DNA from: an uncultured Christensenellaceae bacterium
GTDB taxonomy: Bacteria > Bacillota > Clostridia > Christensenellales > UBA3700
NCBI GenBank assembly: GCA_944383905.1
Contig: CALWRI010000010.1
Location: forward strand, 1,589 to 65,588
Length of the DNA stretch: 64,000 bases
Direction: 5' to 3'
The notes beneath the pieces are model-generated. The model did not search any database. It was not told the DNA's origin and saw only the letters and a program-made list of their open reading frames with translations. Shown here in pieces: positions 1 through 50,146 of the stretch. The number at the start of each line of letters is the position of its first letter. Position 1 is the stretch's first letter. The position numbers were made by a program, and so were the translations under genes.

Positions 1-1133
1 GAAAAAAGCTCTATACTTCCATTTACACTATGCGCCTGACGAACTACCGACACGCTCCCGTCTTTCAAAGCATATCTTATGCCGTCTTCTGCAACGTAAT
101 ATATTTTGCCGTCGTTTGCTACATCGTTGTTGTTGCAATCCCATATAACAGGGCAATAATCTTTGTTCCAACCCTCCACCCAATCGTAAGGCTTGTCCTT
201 GATCTCGCAATATATCGCAAGCACTTTGCAATCTTTGAACGCATTATTGCCTATACTCAAAACTCCTTCAGGGATAGTTATGCTATTAAGCGAGCCGCAT
301 TTCCCGAACGCATAAGAATCTATGCTTTCCACACCGTCCGGTATGTTTATACATGTCAGTAAATTACAATTGTAAAACGCATTTTCCTTTACGTTGATAA
401 TATTAGTTATCGTAACGCTTTGTAACCGTGCAGGAACATAATTATTATTATTCACATAAGATTGCGCACCGAATATATAGCCGAAAGAAGTCTCATCTGT
501 TTCTTCTTTACTTGCTCCGATAAACGGCAACATGATGCTCTCAAGAGAAACACATCCTTCAAACGCCCCTATACCGATCGACGTAATCGTATCAGGTACA
601 TAAACGTGCTTTAGTCCGGTAGAATTCGCAAATGCCGAAGAAGCAATCTGCTCCACCGCCGTTCCGTTAATCGATTGCGGAATAATCAGAACAGTTTCTT
701 TTTTACCCTCCTCTGTAATTCCGATGATTGAATTGTCTGCTACAATAAACAGATTTTCGTATCCATCTTGTAAAACCATTACGATACACGTTTCCGTCTT
801 GCCGTTTGAAGACGATACGGTAATCGTAGCAACTCCTGAAGATTTAGCAGTAACTAATCCGTACGACACCGTTGCAACAGAAGAGTCAGAACTTTCCCAC
901 TTTAGGCTTTTATTCGTTGCATTTTTAGGAAACACGTTAGCTTCGATAGTTGCGTTTGCGCCTGTTTCCATCACTAATTCTGTTTGACTCAGTTCGACTG
1001 ACTCAACTTCTATAACTGCCGGAAGATCATCACCGAAAGCGCCTTTTTCGTCACAAGCCGTTACCGACACAATTATAGTTAAAAGTAAACATAAAACTAT
1101 AATCTTAATCAAAAATCCCTTCCTGTTGTTCAT
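1..1133 (-). CDS. Lipoprotein with Ig-like (Big_2) domain and BspA-type leucine-rich repeats (partial, runs off the left edge)
   Basis: Hand translation (absent from the ORF track): MNNRKGFLIKIIVLCLLLTIIVSVTAC lipobox; VESVELSQTEL...ATNKSLKWESSDSSVATV Big_2 motif; IPQSING..IASSAF, VPDTITSIGIGAFEGC LRR_5 repeats; AGGAG RBS upstream. Confidence 0.8.
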   Translation of the reverse strand, partial: MNNRKGFLIKIIVLCLLLTIIVSVTACDEKGAFGDDLPAVIEVESVELSQTELVMETGANATIEANVFPKNATNKSLKWESSDSSVATVSYGLVTAKSSGVATITVSSSNGKTETCIVMVLQDGYENLFIVADNSIIGITEEGKKETVLIIPQSINGTAVEQIASSAFANSTGLKHVYVPDTITSIGIGAFEGCVSLESIMLPFIGASKEETDETSFGYIFGAQSYVNNNNYVPARLQSVTITNIINVKENAFYNCNLLTCINIPDGVESIDSYAFGKCGSLNSITIPEGVLSIGNNAFKDCKVLAIYCEIKDKPYDWVEGWNKDYCPVIWDCNNNDVANDGKIYYVAEDGIRYALKDGSVSVVRQAHSVNGSIELF

Positions 1134-1234
1134 TGTCATTCTCTCCTATAAGTTATTGAAAATTGCCAATGTTGATAATATATACCTATTCATTATTAAG
1201 TATAGTTAAATCTAACTTTGATGTCAATTTATTT

Positions 1235-26949: not shown

Positions 26950-27741
26950 TTATCTGAGGTTATCCTGCCAGTTCTTGTGCGCGTAATACTTGTTGACCTG
27001 CGTGTTCTGCCTCTGCTCGTGTTTTCTGCCGCGCAGTATCAGTACGTCGGTGAAAGGCGCGTCGAACATCGTCTTCATCACCTCGTTGTACTTTGCGGAA
27101 TCGATATTCTTGCAGGAAAAAATATCCATCAGGACCTCCCGCGTTTCGTAATTGTAATGCATTGCGATATGACTTTCCGCGATCAGGACGATACCCGACA
27201 AAAAACGCGGGGCGTCCACCCTGTCCTTGAGCACGCACGGACGACTGATCGGATGCATATCCACCTCGTAAGGAAGTCTGTCCAGCTTGTCGCTGAATTC
27301 GTCGAGAGTGGGAACGTGATTGAGAACCGCGCTTATCATATAATGCGGTCCGAAATCCGCGACGTCGTACATGCCCATGTCGTTTTTCTTAAACTCGTTC
27401 CTGTCTATCCTTTTTATAAAAAATGCGTCGCAGGGAAATTCCTTTTTGAGCAGTTTTTCGAGCAGATCCCCCGAGACGAATCCGTCGTAAAGAAGGTCGA
27501 GAAAATAACAGCCGAGCTGCGGAAAGGTATGTATCGTCAGATGCCCTCCCCTGATGAGAACGTAAGCGCTTATGCCGACGTCCTCGAGGTTCTCGCAATA
27601 GTAATAAGGAATGAGTTGCGGCGGCATGACGGACTCAAGCCTCATGGTGTTGACTATTTTGTTGAGCACCTCGTATACGTCCATCAGATTGTCGAGACGC
27701 TGGGTGCTGCAACCGTATGAATCTACCAAAACGTGTATCAT
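26950..27741 (-). CDS. Tandem two-domain SpeD/AdoMetDC-fold pyruvoyl-dependent decarboxylase
   Basis: Domain 1 GISAYVLIRGGHLTIHTFP..LDL; domain 2 FGPH..LSGIVLIAESHIAMH..MDIFSCK. Confidence 0.85.
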   Translation of the reverse strand: MIHVLVDSYGCSTQRLDNLMDVYEVLNKIVNTMRLESVMPPQLIPYYYCENLEDVGISAYVLIRGGHLTIHTFPQLGCYFLDLLYDGFVSGDLLEKLLKKEFPCDAFFIKRIDRNEFKKNDMGMYDVADFGPHYMISAVLNHVPTLDEFSDKLDRLPYEVDMHPISRPCVLKDRVDAPRFLSGIVLIAESHIAMHYNYETREVLMDIFSCKNIDSAKYNEVMKTMFDAPFTDVLILRGRKHEQRQNTQVNKYYAHKNWQDNLR

Positions 27742-27756
27742 GATCTTCTCCCGAAG

Positions 27757-28458
27757 TTAATAATATTTTACTATCCTGTTTTTTACCGAAAAGTCGTCGA
27801 GATTTATGTATGCGGTATATCTGCTGTCGCCGAAAACGGAGCGTTCCTTCAGGATATACCAGCAACCGTCTTCGTCTTCGGAGAGCAGGTCGTATGCAAA
27901 ATAATCTTTGCCCCCGATCCGAAGGAATATCTTGTCGCCGTTTTTTACGACGGCGAAGTCCTTGAGGAATATCATATCCGTGACGAGCGAGCGCACGAAG
28001 CCGAACACATCCTCGCTCTTGCTGACGCTGATGTTGAATTTGTTTTTCCACTCGTAGATAAAGCCGTAATATCTGCTGTATTCGCGCGGCTCGGAGGACA
28101 ATATATCCTTGAAAAGCGAGTTTTCGTTGGAAATTACGTCTCTTTTGACCTCCGTGAGCACATATATCACGACGTCGAGTCCGTAAGGCTCCGCTTTGTA
28201 GAGAAGCTCGAAAAGCTCGACCGCTCTTTGCGCGTGTCTGCAATCCCCCTGTCTGGATGAAGGAGCGCCGCAGTTGAGCCATTTGCAGTACGCCGCCGCA
28301 AACGCTATCTGAAGCAGACGGTATATCTGCGCTACGCTGCGGAAATCGCGCGGAGACGCCTCCGGCATACCCGTGATGAGCCTCATCGCGTTTTCGTCTT
28401 TGACGCTTTCGTTGATATACGCGGCGAGCTGTCTGAAATCAGAGATCTGTTTTTCCAT
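27757..28458 (-). CDS. Hypothetical protein (233 aa)
   Basis: ATG 2 nt after the ParA-like stop; host-like codon usage; no recognised motif. Confidence 0.7.
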   Translation of the reverse strand: MEKQISDFRQLAAYINESVKDENAMRLITGMPEASPRDFRSVAQIYRLLQIAFAAAYCKWLNCGAPSSRQGDCRHAQRAVELFELLYKAEPYGLDVVIYVLTEVKRDVISNENSLFKDILSSEPREYSRYYGFIYEWKNKFNISVSKSEDVFGFVRSLVTDMIFLKDFAVVKNGDKIFLRIGGKDYFAYDLLSEDEDGCWYILKERSVFGDSRYTAYINLDDFSVKNRIVKYY

Positions 28459-28460
28459 AA

Positions 28461-29360
28461 TCAGTCCACGATCAGTTTTGCGAGCTTCGTGTAGCGCACG
28501 AGCGCGGTCTTTTCGTCCTCTTTGAGCTCTCTCGACTTTTTGAGGTCGTAAAGTATGCCTTCCTTCCATTTGAAGCGGCCGATCTCGTTGATGCCGAAAT
28601 TGTCCGCCGAAAGAAAATTGTCGTAAATGCGGAGATTGTCGAGAGTCTCGAGCCTTTTCGCTATGTCTTCCGCCGCGCTTTCGAGCTGTCTGACGCCGTC
28701 TATCTCGACGTCTGCGGGTACAACGGTGGGAAGAAGAATTATGTCGGTATCGTCGCCGAAACTGCCCACTCTCATGCTCATGCGTTTGAGATAGTTGAAC
28801 GTCCCGATCCGGAATTGGATCGTGGGTCTCATACAGAACACGAGCTTGTCCGCTATCTCGACCGCAAGCCTTGCCGAGAACTGGTCGCCCGCCGCAGAAT
28901 CGAATACCGCTGCCCTGACCTTGTTGTTCATGCAGAAATGTCTGAACTTGGTGAGCACGGCTTCTATCGCTCCCACGATAACGGCGCGGTCGAGAGCGTT
29001 GCTGCTGTCGTCCACCCCGAGGAACATCACGGCTTTATCGTTCTCGAGACCGAGCTTTTTTCCTACCGGCCGGAAATACTTGTAAAGAGGATGATCGGTA
29101 ATACCCTCTCCGACCGAATTCTGCGGCCAGTTTTCCTCTCCTTTTATCAACTCTTTGACGTCGAATTTATCCTTGAATTCGTCCTGCATACCGAGGAGAT
29201 AGGTCATGCCCGCGCTTTCGATGTCCATATCGAGCAAAAGTATCGGAGCGTTTGCGTTTGCTCCGCACTCGTCCGCGAGCAGAGGCAGGGTGTTCAGGCA
29301 GGTAGTGCTCCTGCCGGCGCCGCCTTTATAAGAGAAAAACGTAACGAAAGTCGCTGCCAT
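28461..29360 (-). CDS. ParA/MinD-like (deviant Walker A) P-loop ATPase
   Basis: FFSYKGGAGRST, LLDMDIESAG, VFDSAAG. Confidence 0.85.
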   Translation of the reverse strand: MAATFVTFFSYKGGAGRSTTCLNTLPLLADECGANANAPILLLDMDIESAGMTYLLGMQDEFKDKFDVKELIKGEENWPQNSVGEGITDHPLYKYFRPVGKKLGLENDKAVMFLGVDDSSNALDRAVIVGAIEAVLTKFRHFCMNNKVRAAVFDSAAGDQFSARLAVEIADKLVFCMRPTIQFRIGTFNYLKRMSMRVGSFGDDTDIILLPTVVPADVEIDGVRQLESAAEDIAKRLETLDNLRIYDNFLSADNFGINEIGRFKWKEGILYDLKKSRELKEDEKTALVRYTKLAKLIVD

Positions 29361-29361
29361 A

Positions 29362-31179
29362 TTATTTGTCCCCCTCGATAATGTTTATAAGCGTTTCGGG
29401 TTCGGTCCTGAGTTTTCTTACCCAACCGTCCGCAAACTTTTCCGCGTCCGCTTTGAGCTTCGTCCTCAACTGCCGGACGTTCTCGTCGCTCTCCGCGTTC
29501 ACCCTGACGTATTTGTCGATATAGCTGTATATCATATCGCCGAAAAGCTCGTGCAAAGCCTTTTCGTGCTCTTCGAGCTGCACGTCCTTGCCGTAATTGA
29601 AATCGATAATATGCGCGATCGAGGATACGAGCTGGTCGCGGATGGTATCTTTCATCGTTCTGCGAAGCAGGTTTTCGATCTCGTAACTCTGTCTGAGCGC
29701 GGCGATCTCGTCTTCATGCTCCTTCGCGACGTCTTTCTTTATCCTTTCGCGCAGCGCCTTTTCGACGCGCTTCTCGACCTTGATCTCCGCCTCTTTCTCA
29801 AGCTCTTTCTTGGTTTTGAGCCGCTCCGCATACTCTCTTTCGTAGGTGTCGTAATATTGATAGAAATCCGCGATAGCTTCGATATAGCGTTCGGTATTCT
29901 CTATATCGTAGTTCATATTGTCCCAGATCCAATCCTGCGCGTTCATCCTGTCGAAAAGCTCGAGGAAAAGCGTGCTCATCTGTTTTTGCGGGTATCTCGA
30001 AATATAAAACGCTATGATGTTGTTCGCCTTGACGAGAATGGGGACGATGCTCGCGTCGATTAATCTCTCCGCGTTGAGAAGTTTCATGAACTTGTCGCCC
30101 TTCGCCTCGTGCATGGACTGATAATTCATATAGTATGTGTCGACGACGTACTCCTTGTTCTCCTTGGAGAGTTGCTCGTATATCCTCTGCACGTTCTGCA
30201 AAGCGGCGTTCATCGTCGCGACGACGTCTTCCTGTTCCTGCTCGTCGTCTCTGACGTTCGCGTATCCGTATATCAGAATAAATATTATATAGACCGTATT
30301 GAAAAGCGCGTTGGACGACGACGCTTTGAGCAGGTCGTCTTTTGTGACCGTCCTGATGTTTTCGAGAAAATCGTCGCTGACGAGATCGGTCTTGAGCACG
30401 GTCTTGTACTTCTGCCATACGTTTTCCGCGATCTTCTTGCAGGTCTTTCCCCAATCGGCTTCGATATGCGAATTGCTCTTGTTTTCGTTGATGAGCGCGA
30501 TAAGCTCCGTATCCGCGGGATTGCCGTCCGCGTCTTCGAGCAGAATGTTGTCCTCAAAGTCGCTGTACGCCTCGAGCACCGAATATGTAAAGAAAAGCGA
30601 AGGCTTCTTGCAGTCAAGCGTATAATTCCAGCCGAGAGGATTGTCCGCGGTGCCTATGACGGACTCGTTGAACTTGTTGATTATCTTCCTCATCTGCCTG
30701 ACGATTATGTCGTCATACTTCTGATCCAGCTCGAGAAGTCCGGCTTTCGTCGCCTTTCTCACGCTCGACAAAAGAGATAAGCACCACGTCATCGCGCCCG
30801 TATAAGGATAGACCGACGAGAACAGCTCCGAATTCTTGCGTTCGGAGACGTATGGATAGAGGTTGTAGCCGTTGTTCTCGATATAGTCGAACACTCCGGT
30901 AACGCAACCTTCGAGATCGTGCTTGTACTCGTCCGGCAGTTGCACCCCCATTCTGTTGATCAGAGAAAATACGCCCGCGCACCCGTATACGTCGCAGAGA
31001 AATCCTGTCTTCTGTTCCTTGTCGTCGGATATAAAATGAAGTTGTCCGTCTTTTTTGACCGTCTTCGTCCAAAGACTCTGAAGGATCTTTTCACCTATGA
31101 CTTTGACGTCGACGTAATTTTTGAATGTGGACGACTGGTCCGAACGTCCGAATAAAATCTGTCTTACACTCTCTCTCAT
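29362..31179 (-). CDS. Hypothetical alpha-helical protein (605 aa) with C-terminal coiled coil
   Basis: Long ORF with RBS; GWNY..PSLFFTYSVLEA; WIWD..TERYIEAI; charged heptad region KTKKELEKEAEIKVEKRVEKALRER. Confidence 0.75.
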   Translation of the reverse strand: MRESVRQILFGRSDQSSTFKNYVDVKVIGEKILQSLWTKTVKKDGQLHFISDDKEQKTGFLCDVYGCAGVFSLINRMGVQLPDEYKHDLEGCVTGVFDYIENNGYNLYPYVSERKNSELFSSVYPYTGAMTWCLSLLSSVRKATKAGLLELDQKYDDIIVRQMRKIINKFNESVIGTADNPLGWNYTLDCKKPSLFFTYSVLEAYSDFEDNILLEDADGNPADTELIALINENKSNSHIEADWGKTCKKIAENVWQKYKTVLKTDLVSDDFLENIRTVTKDDLLKASSSNALFNTVYIIFILIYGYANVRDDEQEQEDVVATMNAALQNVQRIYEQLSKENKEYVVDTYYMNYQSMHEAKGDKFMKLLNAERLIDASIVPILVKANNIIAFYISRYPQKQMSTLFLELFDRMNAQDWIWDNMNYDIENTERYIEAIADFYQYYDTYEREYAERLKTKKELEKEAEIKVEKRVEKALRERIKKDVAKEHEDEIAALRQSYEIENLLRRTMKDTIRDQLVSSIAHIIDFNYGKDVQLEEHEKALHELFGDMIYSYIDKYVRVNAESDENVRQLRTKLKADAEKFADGWVRKLRTEPETLINIIEGDK

Positions 31180-31219: not shown

Positions 31220-32266
31220 TCAGTTGAAATGCTTTGTCAGACAATGGAATCCGCCCCCGCCGAGGTACGCTTCGGTCGCGTCGAGCCTGATTATCTCCCT
31301 GTCCGGGTATACGCTCCTCAATATCTCAAACGCCTCGTCATCCTCTTTTATCCCGAACGCGGGCATGATCACCGCGCCGTTGACCTGGGCATAATTCACA
31401 TAGGTATACAATACGCAGTCTCCGCTCTTTCTCGCAAAACTGCCCTCTTTGTCCACGATGTCTCTGCTGTCCGCTTCCGTCCTTTTGTGAAACGCCGGCA
31501 CCGGCAGCTTTACTATCCTGTATTTTTCGCCGTCCGCGTTCCTGACTCCGGAAAGAATGTCGAAAAGTCTGTGCGTGACTTCAAAATGAGGATTGCTCTC
31601 GTCGTCGGTGTACGAAAGCAGCATCGTATTCTTGTCCGCAAAAGCGAGCACGTTGTCGATGTGTCCGCCCGTCTCGTCACCTTCAAGTCCGAACGGCAAC
31701 CAGATCAACTGCCTGCTCTCCGTCGCTTCAAGCAGGATCTTTTCTATCTCCTCTTTCGTCATCGACGGATTTCTGTTGTCGTTGACGACGCTGTCCTCGA
31801 CGACGAAAACCGTCCCGTTTCCGTCGGGAGTGATGTTTCCCCACTCCATAGTAACGGGATAATGCTTCACCTCGTAGCCGAACACTTTTTTCGTCAGAGT
31901 TTCGTTGAGCGCGGCGTCGTTGTCCCACGAGCCGTAAAGCTCGCCGCCGTATGCGTTGAACCCAAGCGCGTTGACGCGTTTTTTTCCGTTTTCGCCAACG
32001 CATACGCTCGCAAGCATATCTCGCGCCCAGCAGTCGTCGTATCTGACCTCGAAAATCTCCGCACCGGGAACGAACGCGTAATGCGCGAGAACGTACTCCT
32101 TCATCTCCGGAAGCACTCCGACTATGACGCGTTGTCTTTTTGCTATTTCGTTGACGAGTGCCGTCATCATCTTCTGCGCAGGGACCGCGTTGTCTCTCCA
32201 TACGTCGGTCCTGTAAGGAAACAACGTCACCGTCGCAATCTGTTTTTCGTATTCGCCTTTGAGCAT
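31220..32266 (-). CDS. aguA: Agmatine deiminase
   Basis: DDCWARD, DGNGT, NRNP, ETGGHID, YVNY, GGGFHCLT. Confidence 0.88.
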   Translation of the reverse strand: MLKGEYEKQIATVTLFPYRTDVWRDNAVPAQKMMTALVNEIAKRQRVIVGVLPEMKEYVLAHYAFVPGAEIFEVRYDDCWARDMLASVCVGENGKKRVNALGFNAYGGELYGSWDNDAALNETLTKKVFGYEVKHYPVTMEWGNITPDGNGTVFVVEDSVVNDNRNPSMTKEEIEKILLEATESRQLIWLPFGLEGDETGGHIDNVLAFADKNTMLLSYTDDESNPHFEVTHRLFDILSGVRNADGEKYRIVKLPVPAFHKRTEADSRDIVDKEGSFARKSGDCVLYTYVNYAQVNGAVIMPAFGIKEDDEAFEILRSVYPDREIIRLDATEAYLGGGGFHCLTKHFN

Positions 32267-32278
32267 ACCGGCCTCCGC

Positions 32279-34024
32279 TTATTTTGAATATCTCGCGAGC
32301 AACTCGCTGTTGCTGCGCGTCAGTACGCTCTTGATAGAAGTGTCCAGCGTGGACAGATAACAGAACGCGCGCGCAAACCTCTTGTACTCGTCGTTGACGG
32401 CGTCGTAAACGATCACCGTGTCGCTCGAGCTCGACGTCGTGGAATTTATCCCGGTGGAATACCATGACGCGCTCGCGGAATTGTTGTTTATGAAGAACAC
32501 GAAGCTGAAGCACTGGTCTATGCACAGATCGTGCGACAGCGGCAGACAGTACAGATTTCTCATCGCTCTGTCCGCTTCTTCTTCGGTTACGGCGATCTCC
32601 TCTCCGTCTTCGTCGTAAGAGAACTGCATCCAGTTTCCTATCTTCGGGAAGGGGCACGCGCCTTTCTCGTCCGTACTCTTTGAGTTGAGGGTATAATTGA
32701 TTATCTTCCTCGACTCCGACACGTCGAGTTTTATCTCGCGGAGCTGCCATCTTTCCATATCGCGCAGCTTCACGCAGTATTTGCAATATCTGTTGATCTC
32801 GTTCAGAAGTATCGGATTGACGTCCATAACGTCGTTGAGTATCGCGACGAACTTTTCGAGGAAGGACACGAATCTGTACGCGTCCGCTTTCGCGACTCTC
32901 TCCGAGGTGCCGCCGCCGTAATCCGCTTCAAGCCACTTGATGAAGTTTTCGGGAACGCTGTATATGTCTTCGTCATAATCGTCGTACGCTATCGAGAACG
33001 CGTTGTCGTCCGACATCAACAGATCGTCGAAAGCCTTGACGTCCTTGCCTATGACAATATGATATTTGTTGAGAAGATCTTTCTTTTTCAGGTTGTCGAA
33101 AGACCTGAAGAAATCCGAAACCTTATTGCGCAGACAGAATTCTCTCCTGATCATATTGGCGACTTCCTGTCTCGCCGCGTTATCCTTTTTGATGAAGCTC
33201 CTTATCTTCGCGCAGAAAGGCTCCCAACTCTCTTTGACGTAATCCTCCGGACAATAGTAATAGTATTTGACGCCCGACACGTTGCCGTCGGGGTCCCTTG
33301 CCGCAAGATTGCTCGAAATTATCATGCAGGAATATGTGTTGCAGTCGTAATTGTTGAGTTCGTTGGTAAGTATATGCGCTTCTTTGAGCATTGCGGGATT
33401 GACCTCGTCGCACGACTTGATGTCGTCGTTCACGCTCCTCGCTATGCACTCCTTTCCTATGCAGTATTTCATAAGATCGACGAATATCCTCGAATCCACC
33501 ATCTTCTTGTGCGAATAATTGATATTCTCCATCAGAGCGGAAAGATATTTCCTGCAAACTTCTTTGAGTATTTCGGTCGACGTTGACGGGTTGAAATATC
33601 TGATCAACGTGTCTTTTTCGATGATATGAAGAGACTTTATGCTGTCGGGAAGATCCCTGTAAGATATGTCTTCGATGGCTATCGGGTAAATCTGCAGCCT
33701 GCTGTTTGAAACCGCCGCCATGTCGGCATAGCTCTTCAACTCTTTGAGCACTTCGACTGAAGTGATGGAATTCTTCGACAATACGGGGATCATGAGACAG
33801 GTCTTGGCGATCTGCAAGTTTATTTCGTTTTCGTATTTGTCTCCGCCGTAATTCCTCTCCTGCCCGTTGCCGTAATACATACTCCAATAACAGACGTCGA
33901 GAGACTCCATTCCGTTGATTATACCGCGCACTTTGTCTATATCCGCGCTGCAAAGAGAAATGAATATCTTGTACCTTTCGAGATTGAGGCTTTTTGCCAT
34001 ACTGTCGATCGCGGTTTTGTTCAT
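32279..34024 (-). CDS. TIR-domain protein with long uncharacterised C-terminal region
   Basis: KIFISLCSAD; GDKYENEI; LMIPVLSKNSITSVEVLKEL (Glu95); IYPIAIED. Confidence 0.8.
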   Translation of the reverse strand: MNKTAIDSMAKSLNLERYKIFISLCSADIDKVRGIINGMESLDVCYWSMYYGNGQERNYGGDKYENEINLQIAKTCLMIPVLSKNSITSVEVLKELKSYADMAAVSNSRLQIYPIAIEDISYRDLPDSIKSLHIIEKDTLIRYFNPSTSTEILKEVCRKYLSALMENINYSHKKMVDSRIFVDLMKYCIGKECIARSVNDDIKSCDEVNPAMLKEAHILTNELNNYDCNTYSCMIISSNLAARDPDGNVSGVKYYYYCPEDYVKESWEPFCAKIRSFIKKDNAARQEVANMIRREFCLRNKVSDFFRSFDNLKKKDLLNKYHIVIGKDVKAFDDLLMSDDNAFSIAYDDYDEDIYSVPENFIKWLEADYGGGTSERVAKADAYRFVSFLEKFVAILNDVMDVNPILLNEINRYCKYCVKLRDMERWQLREIKLDVSESRKIINYTLNSKSTDEKGACPFPKIGNWMQFSYDEDGEEIAVTEEEADRAMRNLYCLPLSHDLCIDQCFSFVFFINNNSASASWYSTGINSTTSSSSDTVIVYDAVNDEYKRFARAFCYLSTLDTSIKSVLTRSNSELLARYSK

Positions 34025-34067: not shown

Positions 34068-34096
34068 AGTATAACATATAAATAACGATTTTACAA
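34068..34096 (-). promoter_or_regulatory. SigA-type promoter of the TIR operon
   Basis: TTGTAA-N17-TATACT with TG extension; AAAGGAGG RBS before the ATG. Confidence 0.65.
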
Positions 34097-34189
34097 CATT
34101 TTTTTGTAAAGACTCTCGGGCAAAACAAAAGCCGCCCCTTTCGGAGCGGCTGAAATAGCCTTTTTTGTCGGTCTGCCGTCAGACGGTCG

Positions 34190-46105: not shown

Positions 46106-49100
46106 TCAGATCTCTATCTCGCCGTCGAACACTTTGACTGCGGTACCCGTCATGTATACGGCGTCGCCCGTATATCTTACGGTCAGATCTCCGCCGGGCT
46201 GTTTGACGGTGACGTCCTCGTCCTTGGCGCACAGTCCGTTTTCCACAGCCGCGACGACCGCAGCGCACGCACCCGTACCGCACGACCTCGTTTCGCCGCT
46301 GCCTCTCTCCCACACTCTCATCTTTATCGTGTGATCGTCGAGGACTTTGACGAATTCGGTGTTCACTCTCTCGGGGAACAGCGCGTCGGTCTCAAACGCC
46401 GCGCCGACCTTGTTCACGTCGAAGCGGTCGAGGTGTTTGAGAATTACGACGCAATGCGGGTTGCCGAGGTTTACGCAGGTTATGTCGTATACCGTGCCGT
46501 CGACGACGTGCTTCATGCCGACGATCCTGCCCTGCGCGTTCGCGGGTATCTTCGCGGCGTCGAATTCGGGAGCGCCCATGTTGACCGTGATATAAGTCGC
46601 CTCGCCCTTTTCGGTCTTGATGCTTATCTCTTTGAACCCGGAGAGCGTCTCCACCGTGAATTCGCGCTTGCGGACGATATTGTTGTCATATAGATATTTC
46701 GCGACGCACCTTATGCCGTTGCCGGACATTTCGCCTTCGGTGCCGTCGAGATTGAACATTCTCATCTTTGCGTCCGCGTTCTTCGAAGGCAATATCAGTA
46801 TCACGCCCTCTCCGCCTATACCCGTATATCTGTCGGAAAGTCTGATCGCGAGCATTTCGGGGCTGTCGATCGGGTTTTCGAGGCAGTTGAAGCAGATATA
46901 ATCGTTGCCCGCGCCGTGCATCTTAGTAAACTTTCGGAGCGTCTTGCCCTTGCGTAGCTTGTTGATGTCCACAAGCTCGGTATTGAACTCCGAATACCTG
47001 CTCATCAGGCTGTTTGCGACCGCGTTGGCAGTATCTATCGAAGTCAGGCACGGAATAGCCCTTTCGACCGCTTTGCGCCTTATCTTGACGCTGTCGCGCG
47101 TGGGCAGTTTGCCTTTGGACGACGTGGATATGATGTAGTTGACCTTTCCGCTCTCGATGAGCGTGAGGTTGTTGTTGACGTGGTTCTGGTGTATCTTGTC
47201 CACGACGATGACGTCCATGCCGAGGTCTCTTATCACCTTTGCGGTACCCGCCGTCGCGTAAAGCGTATATCCGAGGTCTTCGAACTTCTGCGCGATCTCG
47301 CCGATCTCGCTCTTGTCCTGGTCTCTGACGGTGATGAATATGCCGCCCTTTTTCTTCATCTTGTAACCCGCCGCAACGAGTCCTTTGAACAACGCCTCTT
47401 CCAGAGTGCCCGCAATGCCGAGCACTTCTCCCGTGGACTTCATTTCGGGTCCGAGTTGCGTGTCCACGTTGGTGAGTTTCTCAAACGAGAACACAGGCAC
47501 TTTGACCGCGACGTAAGGCGAATTGGGATAAAGACCCGTGCCGTAACCCATATCCTTGAGCTTTTCTCCGAGTATCGCGCGGGTCGCGAGATCCACCATC
47601 GGAACGCCGGTGACCTTGCTCAGATAAGGGATCGTGCGGCTGCTTCTCGGATTGACCTCTATGACGTAAAGCTCGTTTTTGTAGATCAGATACTGAATAT
47701 TGACGAGCCCGACCGTATGCAAAGATACCGCAAGACGTTTGGAGCAGTCGACGATGCGCTCCGTCATCTCGTCGCCGAGGTTCCATGCGGGATAGACCGC
47801 TATCGAGTCGCCCGAGTGTATGCCTGTCCTCTCGACGTGCTGCATTACGCCCGGAATGAGGATATCTTCGCCGTCGCATATCGCGTCGATCTCAAGCTCC
47901 TTTCCCATCAGGTATTTGTCGATAAGCACGGGGTTTTCAATGCCTTGTGCGAGAATAACGTCCATATATTCCTTGACGTCGTCGTCGCTGTAACATACCG
48001 TCATGTTCTGTCCGCCGAGGACGTAAGAAGGACGGAGCAGCGTCGGATAGCCTATTTCGTTGGCAACGCGGAGCGCCTCTTCTTCGGTCATGACGGTAAA
48101 GCCCTTCGGACGCTTGATATCCAGCCTTTCGAGAAGCTCGTCGAACTTCTCTCTGTCCTCCGCCATATCGATGTATTCCGCCTGCGTGCCGAGGATCCTG
48201 ATATTCTTTTCACGCAGCATCTTGGTCAGTTTGATCGCCGTCTGACCGCCGAAAGCGACGACGACGCCGTACGGCTTTTCGGTGTTGAGGATGCTCAATA
48301 CGTCTTCGTTGGTGAGCGGCTCGAAATACAGCCTGTCCGCCGTATCGAAGTCGGTCGAGACAGTCTCCGGGTTGTTGTTGACGATGACGACCTCAAAGCC
48401 TCTCTCTTTGAGCGCCCATACGCAGTGGACGGACGCGTAGTCGAATTCTATACCCTGACCTATCCTTATCGGACCGCTGCCGAACACAACGATGCGCTTT
48501 TTGTCCGTCTTGTTGTTTTCGAGAAACTCAAGCGCCTCGTTTTCGTCGTCGTAGGTCGAATAGAAATAAGGGGTCTCGGCGCTGAATTCCGCCGCGCAGG
48601 TATCGACCATCTTGTAAGAAGCGTAACGCTTGTTTTTGATCTTGTCCTTGCTGAAACTCTCGATCGTCTTGTCGAGATAACCCATCTTTTTGGCTTCGAG
48701 ATAGAGCTCGTCGGTAAGCGGCTCGCTCGCGAGACGTCTTTCCATCTTCACGAGATTCTTATATTTGTTGAGGAACCACTTGTCTATCTTGGTCTTGTTG
48801 TATATCTCGTCGACGGAGAAGTCTCTCTTGAGCGCTTCGTAAACCGCAAATATCCTCTCGTCGTCGCAGTCGTTGAGTTTTTCGGAAAGCTCGCCGTCGC
48901 TCATGGCGATGAACTTTTCGCTGTTGAGCGTATCGTGAGATATCTCCGCGCCTCTGACCGCCTTGAGTATCGCCTGCTCGAACGAAGTGCCTATGCTCAT
49001 GACCTCGCCCGTAGCCTTCATCTGCGTACCCAGCTTGCGGCTTGCGTAGAAGAACTTGTCGAAAGGCCACTTGGGGAACTTGACGACGATGTAGTCGACG

Positions 49101-50146
49101 GACGGCTCAAAGCACGCGTACGTCGTGCCCGTGACCGCGTTGAGTATCTCGTCGAGAGTGTATCCTATCGCGATCTTCGTCGCGACTTTTGCAATCGGAT
49201 AACCCGTCGCCTTCGAAGCGAGCGCGGAAGAACGCGAAACGCGCGGATTAACCTCTATGACCGCGTATTCGAAGCTGTCGGGCCTCAACGCGAACTGCAC
49301 GTTGCAACCGCCCTCAACGCCGAGCGCGTCGACTATCTTAAGCGCCGCGCTTCGCAGCATCTGGAATTCCTTTTCCGCAAGGGTCACGGTGGGAGCGACG
49401 ACTATGCTGTCGCCCGTATGCACGCCGACAGGGTCGACGTTTTCCATCGAGCATATCGTGATGCAGTTGCCCTTGCTGTCGCGCATCACCTCGAATTCTA
49501 TCTCCTTCCAGCCGCTTATGCACTTTTCGACAAGGATCTGATGTATCGGAGAACTGCGCAGACCGCCTTCCGCGATCTCCACGAACTGATCTTCGTTGTC
49601 CGCAATGCCGCCGCCCGTGCCGCCCAGCGTGAACGCGGGACGTATGATGACGGGGTATCCGATCTTTTTCGCGACTTTCTTGCCCGCCTCGAGATCGTTG
49701 ACGACTTCGGACGGAATCACGGGTTGATCGATCTCCGCAAGCGTATCCTTGAATGCCTGTCTGTCCTCCGCGCGGTCGATCGTCTCGGGATTCGCGCCGA
49801 GAAGCCTGACGCCCATCTTGTCGAGGAAGCCCTCCTTTGCGAGCTGCATCGAAAGGGTGAGTCCGTTTTGTCCGCCCATCGTGGACAGAAGACTGTCGGG
49901 GCGCTCCTTTTCGATTATTCTCTTTACCGTATTCAGAGTGAGGGGCTCGATGTATATCCTGTCCGCGACGGCGTTGTCCGTCATGATAGTCGCGGGATTG
50001 GAGTTTACGAGGACGACTTCGAGTCCGTCGGCTTTAAGCGCGCGGCACGCCTGCGTACCCGCATAATCGAATTCCGCCGCCTGTCCTATGACGATAGGAC
50101 CCGAGCCTATAACCATTACCTTGTGTATGTCTTTGTTGAGTGGCAT
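46106..50146 (-). CDS. carB: Carbamoyl-phosphate synthase large subunit fused to a C-terminal DapF-like domain
   Basis: GSGPIVIGQAAEFDY, two ATP-grasp halves and MGS domain; then FTKMHGAGNDY, GNPHCV, VNTEF, WERGSGET..CGTG. Confidence 0.95.
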   Translation of the reverse strand: MPLNKDIHKVMVIGSGPIVIGQAAEFDYAGTQACRALKADGLEVVLVNSNPATIMTDNAVADRIYIEPLTLNTVKRIIEKERPDSLLSTMGGQNGLTLSMQLAKEGFLDKMGVRLLGANPETIDRAEDRQAFKDTLAEIDQPVIPSEVVNDLEAGKKVAKKIGYPVIIRPAFTLGGTGGGIADNEDQFVEIAEGGLRSSPIHQILVEKCISGWKEIEFEVMRDSKGNCITICSMENVDPVGVHTGDSIVVAPTVTLAEKEFQMLRSAALKIVDALGVEGGCNVQFALRPDSFEYAVIEVNPRVSRSSALASKATGYPIAKVATKIAIGYTLDEILNAVTGTTYACFEPSVDYIVVKFPKWPFDKFFYASRKLGTQMKATGEVMSIGTSFEQAILKAVRGAEISHDTLNSEKFIAMSDGELSEKLNDCDDERIFAVYEALKRDFSVDEIYNKTKIDKWFLNKYKNLVKMERRLASEPLTDELYLEAKKMGYLDKTIESFSKDKIKNKRYASYKMVDTCAAEFSAETPYFYSTYDDENEALEFLENNKTDKKRIVVFGSGPIRIGQGIEFDYASVHCVWALKERGFEVVIVNNNPETVSTDFDTADRLYFEPLTNEDVLSILNTEKPYGVVVAFGGQTAIKLTKMLREKNIRILGTQAEYIDMAEDREKFDELLERLDIKRPKGFTVMTEEEALRVANEIGYPTLLRPSYVLGGQNMTVCYSDDDVKEYMDVILAQGIENPVLIDKYLMGKELEIDAICDGEDILIPGVMQHVERTGIHSGDSIAVYPAWNLGDEMTERIVDCSKRLAVSLHTVGLVNIQYLIYKNELYVIEVNPRSSRTIPYLSKVTGVPMVDLATRAILGEKLKDMGYGTGLYPNSPYVAVKVPVFSFEKLTNVDTQLGPEMKSTGEVLGIAGTLEEALFKGLVAAGYKMKKKGGIFITVRDQDKSEIGEIAQKFEDLGYTLYATAGTAKVIRDLGMDVIVVDKIHQNHVNNNLTLIESGKVNYIISTSSKGKLPTRDSVKIRRKAVERAIPCLTSIDTANAVANSLMSRYSEFNTELVDINKLRKGKTLRKFTKMHGAGNDYICFNCLENPIDSPEMLAIRLSDRYTGIGGEGVILILPSKNADAKMRMFNLDGTEGEMSGNGIRCVAKYLYDNNIVRKREFTVETLSGFKEISIKTEKGEATYITVNMGAPEFDAAKIPANAQGRIVGMKHVVDGTVYDITCVNLGNPHCVVILKHLDRFDVNKVGAAFETDALFPERVNTEFVKVLDDHTIKMRVWERGSGETRSCGTGACAAVVAAVENGLCAKDEDVTVKQPGGDLTVRYTGDAVYMTGTAVKVFDGEIEI

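Follow-up and report, generated by a model that had tools for sequence, protein, structure and literature searches.

The 64,000-nucleotide stretch of contig CALWRI010000010.1 analysed here (the window, taken at its full length) comes from an uncultured Christensenellaceae bacterium and carries a tandem SpeD-like gene, SPD. The product of this gene is probably a single-chain pseudo-heterodimer of the class-1b S-adenosylmethionine decarboxylase (AdoMetDC) fold with one composite active site, and its substrate is most likely L-arginine. The parts of the gene on which this reading turns are listed below. All conservation counts were taken from an alignment (A1) of 113 family clusters.

26950..27741, minus strand: SPD, tandem SpeD-like gene, 263 aa plus stop, from its open reading frame (ORF) and Pfam; it closes its operon
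27370..27741, minus strand: half 1, residues 1-124, AdoMetDC fold, predicted to be pyruvoyl-incompetent
26953..27357, minus strand: half 2, residues 129-263, AdoMetDC fold with the live Ser/Cys set
27172..27177, minus strand: codons of E189 (GAA) and S190 (AGT), predicted self-cleavage site and pyruvoyl precursor, read from the DNA
27529..27531, minus strand: codon of H71 (CAT), equivalent in half 1 of Thermotoga maritima His68; His in 113/113
27112..27114, minus strand: codon of C210 (TGC), equivalent of T. maritima Cys83; Cys in 113/113

A preliminary description of this DNA had read the gene as an internally duplicated SpeD with a dead and a live half that complement each other. The ORF at 26950..27741 on the minus strand and all the motifs named there are present at the residues given, and the codons of E189, S190, H191, H71 and C210 were compared directly with the window DNA. 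A GGGAG ribosome-binding site lies 6 nt ahead of the SPD ATG. The Pfam family AdoMet_dc (PF02675) matches two stretches of the protein (E 2.7e-24, 86 bits against a gathering score of 25). Half 1 retains H3, D7, S58, H67, T69, H71 and T72-F73-P74. Its motifs read R64-G65-G66-H67, H71-T-F-P-Q75 and D82-L-L-Y-D86, with G65-G66 in the place of Glu-Ser and D86 in the place of Cys. Half 2 retains S182, A188-E189-S190-H191, H195, D206-I-F-S-C210 and R237-G238, is without the T-W/F-P-E part of the HTWPE motif, and carries H195-Y-N-Y198. The self-processing Ser after Glu or Gln, together with the equivalents of His68 and Cys83, is found in half 2 only (E189-S190, H195, C210). The start of half 2, DFGPH, is the counterpart of the N-terminus MFGPH of single-domain relatives, and the linker between the halves is variable and about 12 residues long; the protein thus resembles two complete units placed head to tail.

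The halves of SPD are homologous. BLASTP of half 1 against half 2 was not significant (E 0.87), and comparison by hhalign of the half profiles built from the 113 family members gave a probability of 97.2% (E 2.9e-11, 107 columns) in the register S58=S182, G65-G66=E189-S190, H71=H195, D82=D206 and D86=C210. A single chain with two homologous AdoMetDC-fold halves, as first proposed, is thus borne out by the two Pfam stretches and by this profile match. Both halves in the family profile also match the solved class-1b AdoMetDC chains 1tlu and 2iii. Alignment of 1tlu with half 1 (phmmer) places Ser55 at S58, Glu62-Ser63 at G65-G66, His64 at H67, His68 at H71, Glu72 at Q75, Asp79 at D82 and Cys83 at D86. 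The class-1b enzymes of T. maritima and Aquifex aeolicus (1tlu, 1tmi, 1vr7, 2iii) align with each SPD half along most of the half, with the catalytic positions in register; unlike SPD, they are homodimers of protomers of about 130 aa that carry the full ESH...HTWPE...C set.

The arrangement is not confined to the window. A word-indexed search found relatives of SPD in 132 clusters, nearly all of 262-276 aa, from Clostridia and related metagenome-assembled genomes; family members, where named, carry the label 'S-adenosylmethionine decarboxylase'. Patterns of the family matched 259 stretches among 185,579 GTDB species genomes, and a relative was encoded in 250. The best 80 of these 250 relatives were taken as the locus set, which with the window makes 81 loci. 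Searching 1.84 billion representatives with HMMER gave 416 matches at E<=1e-3, 87 at E<=1e-10 and 24 at E<=1e-30. Among 51 distant representatives of at least 225 aa that were aligned, about 45 were tandem proteins, all with a dead N-terminal half without the Ser-Cys set and a live C-terminal half with IAESH...D.FSC; the remainder were single-domain proteins with other extensions, or fragments, and a tandem with a live N-terminal half occurred in none of the 51. Two longer members, P0189 (480 aa) and P0200 (571 aa), add to the tandem decarboxylase an N-terminal stretch of about 245-335 aa that has no Pfam match and, by eye and as an impression only, resembles a HAD-type phosphatase.

The pattern of a dead half 1 and a live half 2 does not reflect chance, being conserved across the 113 aligned family members. 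Invariant residues of half 2 (113/113) are A188, S190, H191, H195, D206, F208, S209, C210, R237 and G238, and S182 is found in 112/113. The residue before the half 2 Ser is Gln in 63 members and Glu in 50, the window protein having E189. Half 1 has its own invariant set (113/113), namely D54, G56, S58, T69, H71, F80 and D82, with G65 and H67 in 111/113 each and T72, F73 and P74 in 110, 112 and 110 of 113. Position 66 is Gly in 81 members and Ser in 30, and position 86 is Cys in 0/113. Mean pairwise identity is 46.0% in half 1 against 44.1% in half 2, and the columns conserved at 90% or more number 26/114 and 22/108, respectively. Half 1 is as conserved as half 2 and is not decaying, and the reversed-polarity tandem is a large conserved family rather than a single oddity. 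The polarity is opposite to that of eukaryotic AdoMetDC, as had been claimed at first, with the Ser/Cys set in the C-terminal half only in all 113 members. A catalytically inert SPD, acting as a regulatory or scaffold pseudoenzyme, is very improbable. One half is clearly non-catalytic, and dead AdoMetDC paralogues that regulate live ones exist, as in the Trypanosoma brucei prozyme (PMC5201418), but the Ser, His and Cys of half 2 are present in 113/113, the invariance expected of a working pyruvoyl enzyme.

The active site of T. maritima AdoMetDC receives residues of the partner protomer in trans. The T. maritima residues S63, H68 and C83 have been reported to be essential for processing and catalysis (PMC10407285). 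In eukaryotic AdoMetDC, one half brings the pyruvoyl Ser, the adjacent Cys and the Glu, and the other half brings the strand-12 His and the ribose-binding Glu; the prokaryotic protomer is the union of both half sets, and its sandwich is formed from two identical molecules (PMC1282579). Because the published fold analysis splits the residue sets between the halves in this way, one composite site would be expected in SPD. The proenzyme would cleave itself between E189 and S190 into a 21.8 kDa beta chain (residues 1-189) and a 9.0 kDa alpha chain (residues 190-263) bearing the pyruvoyl group. Half 2 would give S190 (as pyruvoyl), C210 (as proton donor) and E189 to the single site, and half 1 would give H71, S58 and T72-F73-P74 in place of the second protomer of the homodimer, with H71 acting in trans on the half 2 site. 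We infer both the self-cleavage and the trans geometry from the sequence.

At the symmetry-related second site no pyruvoyl would be formed in the window protein. The residues of this site are conserved all the same (GGH or GSH, H67, S182 and H195), and because they stay under selection the site probably has a structural or ligand-binding role. The analogy behind a ligand-binding role is the putrescine site of human AdoMetDC.

The substrate is most likely L-arginine and the product agmatine, judging from gene context and from the residues of the substrate site. The agmatine would be consumed by the operon's own AguA-like enzyme or, in relatives, by an agmatinase. Neighbourhoods were counted in a tblastn tally over all 81 loci. 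An agmatinase gene lies directly upstream of SPD in 24/81 loci, typically with a 1-base overlap, and an AguA-like (24) or SpeB-like (3) gene lies within the SPD operon in a further 27/81, so that SPD is linked with agmatinase, AguA or SpeB in 51/81 loci in total. AguA and SpeB interchange at one operon position. The one agmatinase tested, that of locus L044, scores 175.9 bits with TIGR01230, above the equivalog cut-off of 174.3. In the relative P0230 (602 aa), a tandem decarboxylase is joined to an AguA domain, which matches PAD_porph at E 2.2e-79 and scores 341 bits with TIGR03380, below the cut-off of 381.8. Characterised SpeDA arginine decarboxylases have been recognised by clustering with speB or aguA without speE (PMC10407285), and the same context, with no speE nearby, was found in 51/81 loci and P0230. 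The preliminary description had favoured arginine over S-adenosylmethionine (SAM), and the linkage in 51 loci together with the P0230 fusion makes it the better guess. The linkage of aguA to SPD on which that suggestion drew was upheld in that both genes belong to the same conserved operon, but they are not simple neighbours, since three genes stand between them; the six-gene operon with its TIR protein had gone unnoticed in that description.

In AdoMetDC the Glu of HTWPE binds the ribose hydroxyls of the substrate (PMC1282579). The position equivalent to Glu72 is Tyr, Gln, Lys, Arg or Phe across the SPD family, with no conserved Glu; by clade it is Gln or Lys in the window sub-clade, Tyr or Arg in others, and Leu, Ile or Val in the agmatinase-linked clade. 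Gln75 had been proposed as a specificity residue, and this part of the earlier proposal fails: the position varies by clade, and it is the loss of Glu that is informative, not the Gln. The score of SPD with the AdoMetDC equivalog TIGR03330 is 66.2 bits, under the cut-off of 75.65. Spermidine synthase, CASDH and CASDC were found in 0 of 87 distinct neighbours within 4 kb at the 24 agmatinase-type loci, the 64-kb window contained none of the three either, and no speE was found among the recurrent neighbour clusters of the other loci. SAM is unlikely and arginine is favoured because of the linkage to agmatine enzymes, the lost Glu, the sub-cut-off TIGR03330 score and the lack of a nearby speE. 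It is accordingly improbable that SPD is a bona fide SAM decarboxylase, which could provide decarboxylated SAM for, e.g., an agmatine aminopropyltransferase route where the SpeB- and AguA-like enzymes would act on N1-aminopropylagmatine. The public names of family members do say SAM decarboxylase, the AdoMetDC fold and catalytic triad are there, and AguA and agmatinase homologues that act on aminopropylagmatine are known (PMC13625781). Against this stand the same equivalog score, the ribose-binding position without a conserved Glu (Leu, Ile or Val in the agmatinase-linked clade), and the neighbourhoods, where no aminopropyltransferase appears in the 87 neighbours of the 24 loci or in the recurrent clusters elsewhere.

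Several observations weigh against the reading of SPD as a composite-site arginine decarboxylase. The claim that the halves are complementary held for half 1, which is one-sided, but not fully for half 2, which also keeps its own equivalents of Ser55 and His68, S182 (112/113) and H195 (113/113). With these residues, a purely cis site in half 2 may exist, with half 1 as a scaffold only. Gly-Ser-His occurs in half 1 of 30/113 family members, still without the Cys, and in 1/75 genome loci, and these 30 members may still process the 'dead' half. In 29/56 of the loci with the core operon described below, there is no AguA or SpeB within 9 kb upstream, which would leave the product without an operon-encoded consumer there. 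The AguA-like protein of the window itself is below the agmatine deiminase equivalog cut-off (TIGR03380, 287.9 bits against 381.8). Finally, Gln is commoner than Glu before the half 2 Ser (63 against 50), and a Gln, to which this one may correspond, is one of four residues diagnostic of the ornithine decarboxylase (ODC) clade (PMC10407285). The last point bears on a further alternative, that L-ornithine (as in SpeDC) or another amino acid is decarboxylated in place of arginine. The residues diagnostic of SpeDC are Gln, Thr, Phe and Tyr, and known fusions carry an ODC domain (PMC10407285); possible counterparts in SPD are Thr69, Phe73 and Tyr79, which are conserved in half 1, and the Gln of 63/113 members. 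An ornithine decarboxylase would, however, give putrescine directly and make agmatinase or AguA needless, yet these are adjacent or fused in 51/81 loci and P0230, and residue 189 of the window protein is Glu rather than Gln. Ornithine is therefore quite improbable as the substrate. Should arginine be correct, many uncultured gut Bacillota, namely Christensenellaceae-like Clostridia and RF39- and Anaeroplasma-like Bacilli, would owe their arginine decarboxylase step to this family, and the annotation of its genes as SAM decarboxylases would distort microbiome predictions of agmatine and putrescine.

Reports also exist on other AdoMetDC-fold tandems. Li, Liang, Phillips and Michael (J Biol Chem 2023, PMC10407285) have modelled the origin of eukaryotic AdoMetDC on the SpeD1SpeD2 fusions. 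These fusions, from Desulfotignum phosphitoxidans, Ca. Omnitrophica OLB16 and Victivallis vadensis, are like SPD of about 270 aa with two class-1b domains, and that of V. vadensis resembles SPD further in that one domain has lost active-site residues and a single cleavage occurs (PMC10407285), as is predicted for SPD. The polarity, however, is opposite, since SpeD1SpeD2 has a live N-terminal true AdoMetDC and a C-terminal domain that is an ODC or, in V. vadensis, degraded (PMC10407285). The contexts and hosts also differ: the SpeD1SpeD2 gene lies upstream of speE, whereas SPD partners AguA or agmatinase with no speE adjacent, and the SpeD1SpeD2 phyla are Omnitrophota, Lentisphaerota and Thermodesulfobacteriota (PMC10407285), whereas the SPD family belongs to Bacillota. 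Eukaryotic class 2 AdoMetDC is likewise a single-chain pseudo-dimer with one processed site and a His from the other half (PMC1282579). In that enzyme processing takes place in the N-terminal half and yields a small beta and a large alpha chain, whereas SPD is predicted to give a beta chain of 189 aa and an alpha chain of 74 aa. SPD also differs from eukaryotic class 2 in its direct similarity to prokaryotic class 1b and in a substrate that is probably not SAM. Single-domain SpeDA shares with SPD the fold, the catalytic residues and the clustering with speB or aguA without speE (PMC10407285). SpeDA is a homodimer with two equivalent sites, whereas SPD is a covalent tandem with one predicted site. 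The single-domain relatives of SPD (P0124-P0146) are uncharacterised, and the published SpeDA clades number three or four.

The reversed tandem was not found described in the parts of PMC10407285 available, by term searches of PMC13625781 and PMC9992855, or in full-text searches, whose coverage leaves out most subscription journals. The SPD family is, as predicted from its members' residues, a single-chain AdoMetDC-fold pseudo-dimer of reversed polarity, and it is widespread in uncultured gut Bacillota. In the accepted model for eukaryotic AdoMetDC, two class-1b units were fused and one site was then lost, and all previously reported bacterial analogues share the polarity of the eukaryotic enzyme. 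A family of opposite polarity implies that either half can degenerate and offers a second natural test of the trans residues.

The origin of the tandem was addressed with the half profiles and a tree. Both profiles match the same uncharacterised single-domain clade (half 1 with 55-85 bits, half 2 with 68-94), whose motifs are FGPH...IAESHIAxHTFP...DIFSCKDFD...RGREFPRS. The tree, built from 61 short proteins and 24 rows of each half, recovers half 1 as a single clade (98% support) and joins half 2 to six short proteins, probably tandem fragments (99% support). A constraint placing the two halves together in a single clade is weakly rejected (p-AU 0.023), many of the branches being long. The internal duplication assumed in the preliminary description is thus not demonstrated, and tandem duplication and fusion of two paralogues are both possible. 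Longer, fused relatives were also sought for the single-domain protein P0130, and none was found, which is weak evidence.

SPD is the sixth and last of a series of tightly packed minus-strand genes, in the order TIR protein, AguA-like protein, c3, ATPase, c2N and SPD, with gaps of 12, 40, 1, 2 and 15 nt. The other features of the operon are as follows.

34130..34151, minus strand: terminator-like hairpin of the upstream gene, from a consensus scan only
34068..34096, minus strand: promoter-like site ahead of the TIR gene, from a consensus scan only
32279..34024, minus strand: TIR-domain protein, 581 aa, first gene of the operon, with weak PADLOC and NCBIfam TIR matches
31220..32266, minus strand: AguA-like agmatine deiminase, 348 aa, Pfam PAD_porph E 4.7e-81
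29362..31179, minus strand: c3, 605 aa, cytosolic, family unassigned, conserved upstream of the ATPase
28461..29360, minus strand: ParA/MinD-like ATPase, 299 aa, with the variant Walker A KGGAGRS, NCBIfam NF047398 AAA_KGGVGR
27757..28458, minus strand: c2N, 233 aa, family unassigned, start likely the Met at 28458

The TIR protein of the window has a PADLOC match at E 5.8e-5, and its homologue in locus L006 matches Pfam TIR_2 at E 1.1e-10. The motif S..S..S..V..E is conserved, including the putative catalytic Glu, and the C-terminal part of the protein is unrelated to c2 or c3. The ATPase, whose consensus was drawn from 50 homologues, matches NF047398 with E 4.8e-12 and 46.6 bits, under the cut-off of 90, and its P-loop matches the PADLOC family PDC-M28B at E 1.2e-7 over 55 residues. 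A longer, 270-aa ORF for c2N overlaps the ATPase gene. In other loci the position of c2N is held by c2, a protein of about 750 aa, and c2N is homologous to the N-terminal ~260 residues of c2 (hhalign 99.8%, E 2.4e-28). No significant Pfam, NCBIfam, PADLOC, PHROGs or PDB-sequence matches were found for c2, c2N and c3, and the c2 and c3 profiles gave nothing below E 0.07 against PDB sequences. Pfam scans of single members of c3 (29) and c2 (27) gave no family matched by more than two members, and the search of PHROGs came back empty for c2N, c2, c3, c3b, c7, the ATPase, the TIR protein and the radical SAM protein. Rfam gave neither a riboswitch nor any other family in the window operon or in 9 related loci. 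An antisense ORF on the plus strand (31229..32287, 352 aa) overlaps the aguA-like gene, is slightly longer, has no family match and is most likely spurious.

The module c3-ATPase-c2-SPD was found in 56/81 loci, all of Clostridia type and the window included, with SPD at the end of the operon. All of c3, the ATPase and c2 are present in 55/56, the remaining locus being cut by the contig end, and c3 lies upstream of the ATPase in 55/56. A TIR protein occurs in 36/56 core loci, in three clusters, one of which also has BspA-type leucine-rich repeats (LRRs). At 25 loci the TIR protein is present and AguA and SpeB are absent; four core loci are without TIR, AguA and SpeB, each with less than 4.8 kb of upstream sequence. 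The other 25/81 loci comprise 24 agmatinase-decarboxylase pairs and one contig edge. In the SPD tree, an agmatinase-pair clade labelled Bacilli or Mollicutes stands apart from the Clostridia clade, and the Clostridia sub-clades match the operon variants. Because of this match, the association of SPD with the operon appears to be old and co-inherited.

Two of the variants carry further genes after SPD. Type B (L011 8780-10366, with homologues in 13 loci) has a CorA-like protein of about 510 aa (c7) directly after SPD, with a large soluble N-terminal part, two C-terminal transmembrane helices and, at E 5.3e-6, a weak similarity to the CorA-like model of PADLOC; this protein has the look of a membrane effector. 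Type D (L021 8780-9892, L035 9562-11958) has a radical SAM protein, similar to the MSMEG_0568 family below cut-off, and a PPDK_N/PEP-utilizer enzyme after SPD. In the relative P0261, a tandem decarboxylase is naturally joined to a radical SAM domain, which shares 53% identity with that of the type D operon. The TIR proteins of type D (L021, L029, L058) have TIR fused to BspA-type LRR_5 repeats. Such repeats are also present in a surface-protein-like ORF of the window (3..1139, minus strand).

An invariant core with a variable TIR and membrane periphery resembles modular conflict systems. It is doubtful whether SPD, instead of being chiefly a housekeeping polyamine enzyme, is an integral part of an undescribed anti-phage conflict or signalling system of gut Clostridia, as its invariant core together with c3, the KGGVGR-type ParA-like ATPase and c2. 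SPD might make a signal, agmatine or a derivative, or deplete a metabolite such as arginine; TIR and CorA-like proteins would serve as effectors, and clearance of the product would fall to AguA or SpeB. As a tentative extension, the signal could be a TIR-made ADP-ribose conjugate, AguA or agmatinase could act as a reset, and the 'dead' site could be an allosteric sensor. The module occurs in all 56 Clostridia-type loci (55 with c3, ATPase and c2), the SPD sub-clades match the operon types as in an old association, the periphery varies (TIR in 36 loci, CorA-like in type B, radical SAM and PPDK-like in type D), 25 loci have TIR without AguA or SpeB, and the TIR domain conserves its putative catalytic Glu. 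However, no component matches a known defence system above noise: PADLOC-DB 2.0 matched no described system, gave weak or partial matches for the ATPase, TIR protein and c7 only, and had no match for SPD, c2, c2N and c3. In 24 loci the decarboxylase stands alone with agmatinase, which fits plain putrescine synthesis, and defence islands are not usually inherited along with the host lineage. No tandem copies were found on plasmids or phages by tblastn: in 50,697 phage records, as in phages and plasmids together, SPD matched single-domain SpeD only, and c3 and c2 matched none. Literature searches on the operon, with most subscription journals outside their coverage, found nothing relevant. If the conflict or signalling role were true, polyamine chemistry would be linked to bacterial immunity, and a single-chain AdoMetDC pseudo-dimer would have arisen a second time with the opposite polarity. 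The strict linkage of SPD to a TIR protein, to an ATPase of variant ParA-like type and to two families without known relatives may mark a new kind of system.

Two minor observations were also made. In a 270-aa AdoMet_dc cluster near SPD in the ESM Atlas, Uroviricota is the commonest phylum among the few labelled members, which hints at some tandem forms on phage contigs. Elsewhere in the window, a 1346-aa ORF (46106..50146, minus strand) combines the whole of a carbamoyl-phosphate synthase large chain, MGS-like domain included, with two DAP_epimerase domains; provided that no frame or stop was misread, this is an unusual CarB-DapF fusion.

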